Of a DNA stretch of 64,000 bases, positions 44,801-47,800 are shown piece by piece. The stretch lies in the NCBI RefSeq assembly GCF_030144855.1, contig NC_082738.1, positions 33,914,001 through 33,978,000 on the forward strand. Direction: 5' to 3'. The notes below the pieces were generated by a model, which saw only the letters and a list, made by a program, of their open reading frames with translations, was not told the DNA's origin and ran no database searches. How positions within the stretch are numbered: the first letter of the stretch is position 1; every line of letters begins with the position of its first letter. The DNA is from Hypanus sabinus (lineage: Eukaryota). A program made the position numbers and the translations under genes.

Positions 44801-47800
44801 AATAACGCATGCTCAATATGCGCCTAATAGTACATTCAACGACGTGTTACTAAAATATAAAGCAGTAACTTATACTGTAGGCTATACGGTAAACTCCTCC
44901 CCTTTTATTTTAATAGTGTATCAACTGTTTTTTTTTTACTGGGGCACTATGTTAAACAAATATGTTTACCCTTGACATACAAACGTCTACCATTTGTTCA
45001 CTTAGTAACTTCATATCAAATTATAACAAAGTAACATAATAATATCAAATTATAACAAGCATTTTTTTAAACTTTTGGTCTGAGACCCATTTAGAACTCG
45101 ACTCTCGGTGGGGGGAAGGGTCTTCTCTGCCTTCCCGGGTAACGTCTGTCAATAAACTTGTTTGTTTTAATGCAGATTTCCATATAAAAGTCATAATAAG
45201 TTGACCTCTGAGCCTGGGAAGTTAAAAAGATGTACGCCTCCAACTTGCTAAGAGTTCTAGGCAACAGATCGCCTCAGTATAATGAAGACTCCTCTGTGCA
45301 GCTGTCCTAGATACATACGCATCTTTGTGCTTCACTTGTCTTCCTTACCCATATCTCATTTGATCCAACTGTTAATTACACAGCCAATCTTCATATTCTC
45401 CTTAGATTCCAAATAGATAGCCTGACCTTTATGATACCATCTCTTATCGTAGTATAACTTTCCAACTTCTGTTTGTGTTTCACATCTTTGTGCTGGTGAT
45501 TCAGCAGGAGTACTGGGAAGATGCTCAGGAGAAGATGGAGATGCTGGTCTTTTCGGAGATATAATCTTACTGAGAGCTTGCAGATCTTCCATTATCTGCT
45601 CGTCTGTTAACAAGTAATTTAACTGTGCAGGTGCAGGTTTTCATCTTTTGTCTGTACAGGTGGCCCCCGTTTTTTTGAACATTTGCTTTATGACAGCTCA
45701 CTGTTACGAAAGACCTACATTAGCAACTGGTTTCGCTAACCAAAGGATTTTTGCTTTTATGAGAAAAAGACGCCCGCTTTATACGTGTGTTTACCCTGAG
45801 AAAGACTACCATGACCGTGAAGCCATGTGCGGGCGGTTGTGTGCGCATGTGTGTATGTGCTGATTTTTTTCCCTCCAAATCAATTTTGGCTCACTGTCTT
45901 CCCAATTTTGATAAGTGAAACTACACTGTAATACAATATTTCTACTTTATATTTATCATATCATTCCTGCTTTTACAATATGTTAGTGTTATTTTAGGTT
46001 TTATGTGTTGTTTGGTATGATTTGGTAGGTTATTTTTTTTGGGTCTGGGAACGCTCAGTAATTTTTCCCATATAAATTAGTGGTAATTGCTTCTTCACTT
46101 TACAACATTTCAGCTTACAAATGGTTTCACAAGAACACTCTAACTTTGGATAGCAGGGGGAACCTGTATATTGGAATAGGGTCATTAGGTCTCCTCCTTA
46201 GTTTCCTAGTCATTATTGGCTTTACCTCCATAGAATCTCCTGTGAGTTCCATTGTTAGCCGCTCATTCTCAATCATCTTTTTCTTTTTTTCTAATTCAAT
46301 CTTTTTATCTTCAAATTCCTTCACTGCTGCTTTCTTCTCTTTAATATAATTCCTTTCCACTTGTTCTGTCTCCTGTTGCAGATAAAGCTCTGCATTTCGT
46401 ATTCCTTCCTTGTATTGTTGATCTAATTTCTTCATTCTTTTCTGATAACCCTGCAAAGTGCCTTCTTGTGACTGCTGTAGCTGTCTTTTGAGAGATGTCA
46501 ATTTCTCCTGGTACATCTGCTCTTTTACTTCCAAGTAGTCGTCTTCATCCTGCCTATTGGCAATATCTATCTCCCTTGCATCCTCTGTATCTTCATCCAA
46601 GTCGCGGCCATGGATACTGCGTTTGTCCTCATCATCGACGCTGTCTAGCTCCTCCTCCTCATTGTAATAGTCAACAATGGTTGAGAGGAGAGCTGAGGAC
46701 ATCTTCACCGCCGACCTGCCCTCCTTTGTTGACACATCTAGTGCCTTGATGGTGTGCCAATCCAACTGGATTTTCCTGAGCCTTTCACATCCCAGCAACG
46801 GTGGTCCTCCATTTTCCAGTCCATGGAGGTTCAGCTGCTGTGTTTTGTCTCTGTAGGTCACTGTCACTTTAATTTTACCTTTGGGACGTACTCTCTGTCC
46901 TGTATAGTTTAGTTCATTTCAGAGGTATGTGAGAAAACAATTTGTAGTCGTGTACAGAGATCACTGTTAAAGCTGAGCCTGTGTCCAGCTCCATTTTCAG
47001 ACTTGCGCCCTATGTTCTCTCTAAGCTTTGCGCGTGTGAGTGCGCACACATTTTTCAACCAGCGTACAAAGGAAATTAATGTGCGCACGAAAGGTTAGTT
47101 AGCTAAAATAATGTAGTAATTAATAATTATACTTGTTGAAATTAATCTTTTAGCTAAATGTTTCTGTTAACTAGTTAGTCGGCTTTTCAAATACCACAAC
47201 GCCCGTCACTAATTTACATTACCTCGCCTTTCCTGTTCCGGTTTGTACAACTGCATTATGATGGCAGCCATCTTTGGCGGACAGTGTTTTTTATCATAAA
47301 GTTTACAAAGATCTGTTTCAAACCCTGTAGATAGCTTACTAAGTTTTTATTGAAAAAAAAAATTGGTTCATTATGTCGAATTCAAAAGAAGCGAAGGGTG
47401 TGAAGCGCAAAAAAACTGCAAATTTGTTTAAAGTTGAATGGCTTAACAAAGTAGTAGAAACTGCTGCACCGAAAGCTCATTTTCTAGCTGAAAATACTGT
47501 AATAGTTTAATGATTTCAAATTTTCTGTGCAAGGAAAAAATTAAATCCAAACTGATTTCAAACTTTGCTCAAATGGTGGCACTTGTACTTCAAAATGAAC
47601 AGTTTTGTGACCTTGCACAGTTGATGGACATTGGAGAAACCTTTCTTATGTCTAGTGTGGACTCTGAGCGAGGTTTTAGCCTAATGAATCAACTCAAAAA
47701 CAAGCTGAGAAATCGTTTAGGTGAATGTCACTCGGATATGTTAATGAGAATCAAAAGCTTTCAATTGGATGGAAGTTCTATTCGTCTATATAGAGTTTAC

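Follow-up and report, generated by a model that had tools for sequence, protein, structure and literature searches.

Is the fusion of a host gene, SUDS3, to a retroviral-type protease an accident of one transposon copy or the design of a family, and did the captured protein matter for the spread of that family? The question is raised by a stretch of 64,000 nucleotides (nt) of the ray Hypanus sabinus (contig NC_082738.1, positions 33,914,001 to 33,978,000), hereafter the window. It carries a non-autonomous Gypsy element with long terminal repeats (LTRs) at 44675-50317 on the minus strand, inside an intron of an ankyrin-repeat gene that we take to be ANKRD52-like. The element, now dead, is one copy of a chimera in which reverse transcriptase (RT), RNase H and integrase (IN) have been replaced by the spliced SUDS3 coding sequence (CDS). 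One continuous frame through Gag, protease (PR) and SUDS3 is the design of the family, not a quirk of the window copy. The long open frame likely helped the element to spread; the silencing function of SUDS3 likely did not.

SUDS3 in the place of reverse transcriptase

In the window copy, an open frame of 263 codons (46127-46918, minus strand) runs from the C-terminal part of the protease through 12 nt of the SUDS3 5' untranslated region (UTR) to the SUDS3 ATG at 46702 and 178 SUDS3 codons. The SUDS3 part ends there at ~46168, at the edge of a miniature inverted-repeat transposable element (MITE). The Pfam Sds3 score of the 263-codon frame exceeds the cut-off, its closest proteins are ray SDS3 proteins, and it matches the Sds3 coiled coil of the Protein Data Bank (PDB) entry 4ZQA (E 1.6e-29) with a gap of exactly 8 residues in the element. 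These data bear out a preliminary description of the locus, which had read a single open frame of protease and about 178 SUDS3 codons with an in-frame 8-codon deletion. The captured piece is larger than was then noted, comprising the whole SUDS3 CDS and ~110 nt of 3'UTR. Gag and protease are broken upstream of the junction, as had also been stated, and so is the 3' half of SUDS3. A protein search with the junction region returned, among 28 candidates, only the window's own protein.

The host SUDS3 gene, on C31, has 12 coding exons and an intact frame of 319 codons. The copies are intronless, the host exons being contiguous in the captured SUDS3. Intron 7 of the host gene (L039-L040, C31) is of the AT-AC, minor spliceosome type, and is gone from the captured copy.

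The parent of the chimera is a Gypsy element with a single open reading frame (ORF) and a polyprotein of ~1,310 residues, in agreement with the single-ORF ancestry proposed earlier. The gag-PR of the element is 52% identical to the polyprotein P0121, and the Pfam matches of gag and protease lie below the cut-off. Degraded full-length parents with the same LTRs are present in the genome; their pol order is PR-RT-RNase H-IN, colinear with P0121, and a pattern for the PR-RT junction gave 95 matches (control, 0). The parents match the element up to both switch points, where they carry RT and IN. SUDS3 starts exactly where the parent RT begins, the position that the preliminary description had assigned to it, and the 5' switch point lies 12 nt ahead of the SUDS3 ATG. 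Microhomology of 7 nt is found at the 5' junction and again at the short form of the 3' junction, in the last integrase codons. A second 3' type holds ~230 nt more UTR, with no microhomology seen. Among 121 copies, 77 are of the short type and 18 of the long type, and 26 were assigned to neither. Of the 121 copies, 106 have the 24-nt deletion motif and not one has the undeleted form; among 99 matches, only the host exon has the deleted residues. Since the deletion is shared in this way and the tree of copies is star-like, the family goes back to one founder capture. The junctions point to a single capture by template switching during reverse transcription, very probably on co-packaged RNA. The parent RT start (L214:2488-2741) and the SUDS3 deletion junction (window ~46289-46315) have 14 nt in common. 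The 24-nt deletion may have come about when synthesis passed briefly to helper RNA, instead of by simple slippage.

Linked variants number 21 in gag-PR and 0 in SUDS3 (shuffles, 0), and 16 of 20 linked gag-PR variants occur at ≥10% among 48 parent copies. Because these variants recur in the parents, the SUDS3 cassette sits on several helper gag backgrounds, a sign of probable repeated recombination with co-packaged helper RNA. Two single recombinants, in which RT begins and then gives way to SUDS3, agree with this. RT and integrase very probably came from that helper, the full-length parent family. The median LTR divergence (K) is alike in the two groups, 0.116 in chimeras (n = 40) and 0.114 in parents (n = 6).

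A family-wide frame that decays neutrally

A DNA search returned 416 candidates, and all 40 that were scored match over nearly their full length at 88-100%. We fetched 120 copies for analysis; uninterrupted copies measure 3.2-3.3 kb. A pattern laid over the deletion site was found at 89 places, 82 of them already known (hand count), which suggests ~140 copies of the SUDS3 chimera type; the total family is estimated at ~180 places. Among 53 copies with both ends, 24 show an exact 5-bp target duplication and 44 one with at most one mismatch. As the 24 exact duplications all differ, the copies are separate integrations. Segmental duplication was rejected as their source, except for clusters on C19 and C79: the copy cluster at 148.5-148.7 Mb of C19, and the five near-identical copies spaced ~130 kb apart at 27.72-28.25 Mb of C79, are segmental duplications. 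Retroposition of the LINE type was rejected as well, given the LTR ends, the 5-bp duplications and the lack of poly(A) at the junctions. The element has the Ty3/Gypsy features of two LTRs with TG...CA ends, a short target duplication, a primer-binding-site-like motif and a polypurine tract, and the catalytic motif of the protease is kept in 75 of 99 copies. Its own RT, RNase H and integrase are replaced by SUDS3, so that it is not an autonomous Gypsy element.

Over the columns that most copies occupy, the frame counts 402 codons between the start codons of gag and SUDS3, followed by 311 to the stop of SUDS3 itself. In the 248-row alignment, the first column with a majority of stops is this SUDS3 stop, and the other two frames contain 43 and 63 such columns. 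Stops affect more than 12% of copies at 10 columns, though never more than 47%; CpG decay sites make up 8 of these columns. When the frame is cut into 10 blocks, zero is the commonest net length change in each. The length of the block holding the PR-SUDS3 junction is unchanged in 70 of 102 copies, and its change is a multiple of 3 in 76. Because this length is kept across copies, the in-frame fusion is not a chance event of the window copy. The preliminary description had proposed a Gag-PR-SUDS3 frame for the ancestral chimera, to be abandoned should the consensus junction prove out of frame or stopped; neither was seen. Long natural frames persist in single copies, with 443 codons of gag-PR in L063 and 339 codons from gag into SUDS3 in L068. 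Of 95 copies, 7 carry an in-frame duplication of 117 nt in gag. Copy L129 was left out of the alignment and L214 out of the parent set; frameshift counts based on the alignment, in which insertions go unseen, are minimum values. Compensating frameshifts in gag (shared 25-nt and 5-nt deletions) were dropped, as they proved to be mostly alignment artefacts when natural copies were measured. A distance test for clades was powerless, known structural groups scoring as background.

The ratio of non-synonymous to synonymous rates (dN/dS) among the copies is 1.06 for SUDS3 (937 synonymous, 2,725 non-synonymous and 191 stop events), 1.02 for gag and 0.90 for PR. These counts leave out 13 codons around the 24-nt deletion, and 5-7 duplicate or misaligned copies (L057, L105, L156, L161 and L162; in some cases L088 and L153) were left out of the dN/dS, linked-variant and deletion counts. 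None of the 97 copies with full SUDS3 cover is free of lesions, and none of 83 gag-PR parts; with a mean of 5.2 lesions per SUDS3 part, the Poisson chance of an intact copy is 0.005. The copies decay neutrally after insertion.

Host SUDS3 differs from the commonest codons of the copies at 11 codons, 7 of them synonymous and 4 non-synonymous. One of the four lies on the host side, named ray proteins carrying the residue of the copies. The founder has 3 element-side amino-acid changes plus the 24-nt deletion. With 187 synonymous sites and a neutral divergence of 4.5%, the host line alone could explain ~8 synonymous changes, which suggests that the founder amplified soon after capture. No mark of purifying selection is seen in founder SUDS3, in a comparison of low power over a history too short for dN/dS. 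The dN/dS check suggested by the preliminary description thus went against a maintained SUDS3 on the branches of the copies, at ~1, and has little power on the founder branch with its 11 differing codons.

Later captures and the possible value of an open frame

Further host sequences have entered the chimera. An antisense, spliced-looking piece of RNF213, identified by PDB matches down to E 4e-16, is present at 20 of 161 loci and enters after SUDS3 codon 226 or 233. Searching with this piece revealed a third type, composed of gag-PR, SUDS3, YBX1 and antisense RNF213. In the YBX1 sub-family, of which we count at least 37 distinct copies, SUDS3 runs to ~codon 122 and is followed by ~25 codons of YBX1 5'UTR and by YBX1 with its cold-shock domain. 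A further 57-nt SUDS3 deletion is usual in this sub-family, which keeps only ~100 SUDS3 codons and lacks the Sin3-binding helix, the Tudor domain and part of the coiled coil. Across the SUDS3-YBX1 junction the frame is kept in 21 of 26 distinct copies (hand count), and 14 aligned YBX1 copies show no stop column before RNF213, the other frames having 13 and 19. YBX1 copies are neutral (dN/dS 0.96), and 79 of 83 compared codons are those of the host YBX1 exons. Several copies of this sub-family (L282, L288, L250 and three further places) show expansion of a 52-bp tandem array close to where YBX1 starts. Secondary retroposition is seen in the distinct target duplications of the complete copies, and chimeras of several genes in the RNF213 and YBX1 types.

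We favour, as somewhat more likely than not, selection on the frame with no role for Sin3. Under this reading an active copy would make one RNA and one Gag-PR-SUDS3 polyprotein supplying capsid and protease, and would borrow RT and integrase from a full-length parent helper. The long frame could shorten the 3'UTR and so shield the RNA from decay; alternatively, a dimerising or RNA-binding tail could replace RT behind the protease and affect protease activation. All four cargo founding events are in frame (the PR-SUDS3 junction, the 24-nt deletion, the 57-nt deletion and the SUDS3-YBX1 junction); 29 of 88 private SUDS3 deletions of at least 4 nt are in frame. A post hoc calculation puts the chance of four in-frame events at 0.012, and at 0.036 if the repeat-mediated 24-nt deletion is left aside. 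It suggests that keeping the frame open beyond the protease was selected, a view to which we lean somewhat. Out of frame, a stop would be met 55-71 nt past the SUDS3 ATG, and the stretch behind it would measure ~1,450 nt in place of ~580; a long 3'UTR makes retroviral RNA subject to nonsense-mediated decay, according to PMC2925335. The deletion-bearing coiled coil is predicted to form an antiparallel dimer (score 0.46, best control 0.02; predicted local distance difference test, pLDDT, ≥84). The mark used for dimers is reached in microbes by 21 of 30 solved pairs and by 0 of 23 single chains, and in eukaryotes by 17 of 29 (animals, 7 of 16), with only 1 of 7 among those lacking an older solved relative. 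The dimer prediction shows likeness only, as the like complex 4ZQA is solved and the overlap in contacts between runs goes down to 0%.

Several points weigh against selection on the frame. The count of in-frame events is small and was made post hoc, and lineages that failed to amplify go unseen. Where antisense RNF213 was captured, the frame closes early and the 3'UTR is long; these lineages amplified all the same, to the 20 of 161 loci given above, which weakens the RNA-decay version and disfavours a strict frame requirement. A leucine zipper placed behind the protease of HIV-1 (human immunodeficiency virus type 1) leads to premature cleavage and fewer particles (PMC3291649, in the part available), so that a dimerising tail could equally harm. 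The linked variants of gag-PR show a purifying tendency (10 synonymous, 10 non-synonymous, p 0.04), which may be imported from the helper and is no proof of selection in cis. The cargo may moreover have been a pure passenger, a possibility that we hold to be real though doubtful: abundant SUDS3, YBX1 and RNF213 RNAs would have been captured, in frame by luck, and would have spread by virtue of the LTRs, the packaging signal and size. Such a course fits the neutral decay everywhere, the absence of linked variants in SUDS3 and the amplification of the non-coding antisense RNF213 capture; both sense captures set in close to the 5' end of the mRNA, a point at which a switch would be forced in any case, and the chance of two in-frame junctions alone is 0.11. 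In the available text of Tan et al. (PMC5131818), 14 of 17 young Drosophila cases have in-frame longest ORFs, and non-autonomous re-amplification is described. A passenger accounts less readily for four founding events in frame out of four, two of which land in 5'UTRs without codon bias, for the absence of a stop column from the ~25 translated codons of YBX1 5'UTR, and for SUDS3-bearing copies (~140 and at least 37) that appear to exceed the parent-type junctions (95 pattern matches).

The preliminary description had looked to the function of SUDS3: released by the protease and even packaged, the protein could titrate or redirect Sin3-HDAC silencing. Carried further, the idea would have SUDS3 packaged or nuclear and aiding the element to evade silencing or to reverse-transcribe, with YBX1 later taken up likewise as an RNA chaperone. 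In its favour, an entire CDS lies in frame behind the PR/RT linker, the largest group retains the coiled coil, the Sin3 helix and the Tudor domain, and the break in both RNF213-only types comes immediately past the helix. Published work, as far as the texts are available, reports that HIV-1 packages Sin3a-HDAC1 components, which affect reverse transcription (PMC3185528), that YB-1 aids HIV replication and associates with integrase (PMC6040738), and that the Sds3 Tudor domain binds nucleic acids (PMC8800102). The YBX1 sub-family nonetheless spread well without the helix. Because it still reached at least 37 copies, titration of Sin3-HDAC is an unlikely driver, and the Sin3-binding helix was probably not needed for spread. 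The founder already had an 8-residue cut in the dimerisation helix, 3 amino-acid changes and almost no synonymous change of its own, and a benefit in trans would aid the parents too rather than favour the chimera in cis. A Sin3-directed role is accordingly improbable. Also improbable is a reading in which the slot behind the protease served as a cassette: SUDS3, a subunit of an HDAC complex, and then YBX1, an RNA chaperone, would have been taken in as polyprotein domains because the proteins, released within the particles, raised the copying rate and let the defective chimeras outnumber the helper.

Use by the host, which might retain some copies as retrogenes of SUDS3 or YBX1 or draw on them for RNA antisense to RNF213, is the reading to which we give least credence. 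Full-length deletion-bearing SDS3-like proteins of 311-321 residues are annotated in two Mobula species, and contigs from sequencing runs guessed to be RNA carry deletion-type sequence. The Mobula proteins are gene predictions, 84-86% identical to the host protein, whose orthologues are nearly invariant, as drift would produce; in the Hypanus sabinus genome, none of 97 full-cover SUDS3 copies is free of stops and frameshifts. Contigs of the runs guessed to be RNA and of X1, placed on a natural copy, are of host-type spliced SUDS3 in X15 and X1 and of the deletion type in X17 and X19, with DNA as a possible source. One X17 contig spans the PR-SUDS3 junction by just over 31 letters; it may stem from DNA and is no evidence of transcription. 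Over L073:2797-3346, the deletion-type X17 contigs have a depth of thousands over the 5' half only and ~30 elsewhere. Selection on the frame without a Sin3 role remains the reading that we prefer.

The locus, other rays and related systems

The features of the window copy are collected in Table 1. The position of the Sin3-binding helix is one that we presume, following the preliminary description. The Tudor domain label comes from PMC8800102, in the part available.

Table 1. Parts of the chimeric element and its insertions in the window
Feature	Position	Strand	Basis
5-bp target-site duplication, left	44670..44674	.	same 5-mer at both element ends
3' LTR, ~220 bp	44675..44893	-	direct repeat D19; termini common to copies
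Polypurine tract	44894..44913	-	purine run at same place before 3' LTR in copies
Parent integrase, final codons	45091..45143	-	match to integrase end of parent elements
3' switch point, 7-nt microhomology of SUDS3 3'UTR and parent integrase	45144..45150	-	sequence comparison
Captured SUDS3 3'UTR, short type	45151..45256	-	94% identity to host last exon
SUDS3 CDS 3' half, with presumed Sin3-binding helix (~45566-45631) and capped Tudor domain; broken here	45257..45656	-	
Later MITE, terminal inverted repeats, TA flanks	45657..46167	.	not in other copies; arms found
SUDS3 CDS 5' half, spliced, family-wide 24-nt deletion near 46294	46168..46702	-	host exons map contiguously
SUDS3 5'UTR, 12 nt, in-frame linker	46703..46714	-	junction comparison
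5' switch point, 7-nt microhomology of parent PR/RT linker and SUDS3 5'UTR	46715..46721	-	junction comparison
Aspartyl protease, catalytic motif at 46985; frameshifted in window copy	46722..47009	-	
Later hAT-like insertion	47010..47992	+	not in other copies; weak Dimer_Tnp_hAT match, E 0.064
Gag, broken in window copy; has CCHC knuckle and, in frame, the 117-nt duplication	47993..48858	-	
Primer-binding-site-like motif adjoining 5' LTR	49206..49219	-	same motif in copies and parents
5' LTR, split by MITE at ~49410-50283	49220..50317	-	LTR repeat and inverted repeats
5-bp target-site duplication, right	50318..50322	.	same 5-mer as left

Three DNA transposon insertions are later than the element, two of them being absent from other copies. 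The element lies antisense to the ankyrin-repeat gene and entered it 9 nt past one of its splice donors (44666-44674). A GC-rich leader stretch of ~190 nt (~48950-49150) is present in chimeras and in parent L176 and not in other parents; it gave no match to the SUDS3 locus. One MITE occurs twice in the window, at 3347-4125 and 49408-50285, in opposite orientation and ~89% alike. A G-rich minisatellite with a unit of ~39-40 bp occupies nearly 5 kb (36488-41366) of an intron of the ankyrin-repeat gene, and an ARAGORN tRNA-Gln call at 41653-41748, antisense over a host exon, is probably spurious.

In Hemitrygon akajei, Mobula hypostoma, Mobula birostris and Hypanus sabinus, gene models either unite gag, SUDS3, YBX1 and an RNF213 tail or show the 8-residue deletion. 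Given what we take to be the family placement of stingrays and devil rays, the captures likely predate the split between them. A 2026 preprint (10.64898/2026.06.26.734816), in its available part, places SUDS3 in the top five of the genes that gave rise to retrocopies in cartilaginous fishes, and links the abundance of retrocopies to non-LTR elements, with selective filtering afterwards. The SUDS3 copies analysed here go back to one LTR capture, later amplified, which explains this rank. What such counts record, and the many 'SDS3-like' and 'YBX1-like' gene models of rays, are thus likely transposon copies. Since one element has made serial captures with a frame that can be scored, selection for captured host proteins becomes testable across ray genomes. 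Our literature search found no paper describing the ray element, although supplements of preprints may list copies; the main text of the manta genome preprint, in the portion available, has no mention of SUDS3, YBX1 or RNF213.

The closest counterparts are the LTR-mediated retrocopies of Tan et al. 2016 (PMC5131818, available text), in which spliced mRNA replaces internal ORFs with microsimilarity at the switch points, both LTRs are kept, secondary amplification occurs and one chimera may hold several genes. Those cases are young and found at one or a few sites, whereas the ray element has an entire CDS fused to gag-protease, ~180 copies, three serial mRNAs and a presence in several genera. 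Crocodilian endogenous retroviruses with KIT-ligand or nectin3 (PMC4299795, available text) are likewise old and amplified, with full-length mRNA and shared in-frame indels in the cargo; they differ in being retroviral, in numbering 6-9 copies, in holding the cargo as a separate ORF or an env replacement, and in the purifying selection reported for them. The ray element is by comparison a Gypsy element with a polyprotein fusion and no selection seen on its cargo. In defective acutely transforming retroviruses, a host CDS lies in frame with gag, pol is lost, the 5'UTR is sometimes translated and a helper is needed. The ray element resembles them in its host CDS in frame with gag and in the helper dependence suggested by the missing pol. 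It differs in having no env, in retaining the protease and in germline retrotransposition, with no sign that the cargo alters cell growth, and its closest relatives are Gypsy polyproteins rather than a retroviral lineage. With respect to the 'K02A2.6-like' single-ORF Gypsy of fish (~1,310 residues), represented by P0121, the ray element has had RT, RNase H and all but the last integrase codons replaced by host cDNA. The ray element is thus an LTR-mediated retrocopy and a non-autonomous Gypsy derivative, which resembles a gag-host fusion retrovirus and is not one. The mechanism, LTR-mediated retroposition, is known; its scale here is unusual, as is the series of in-frame fusions.

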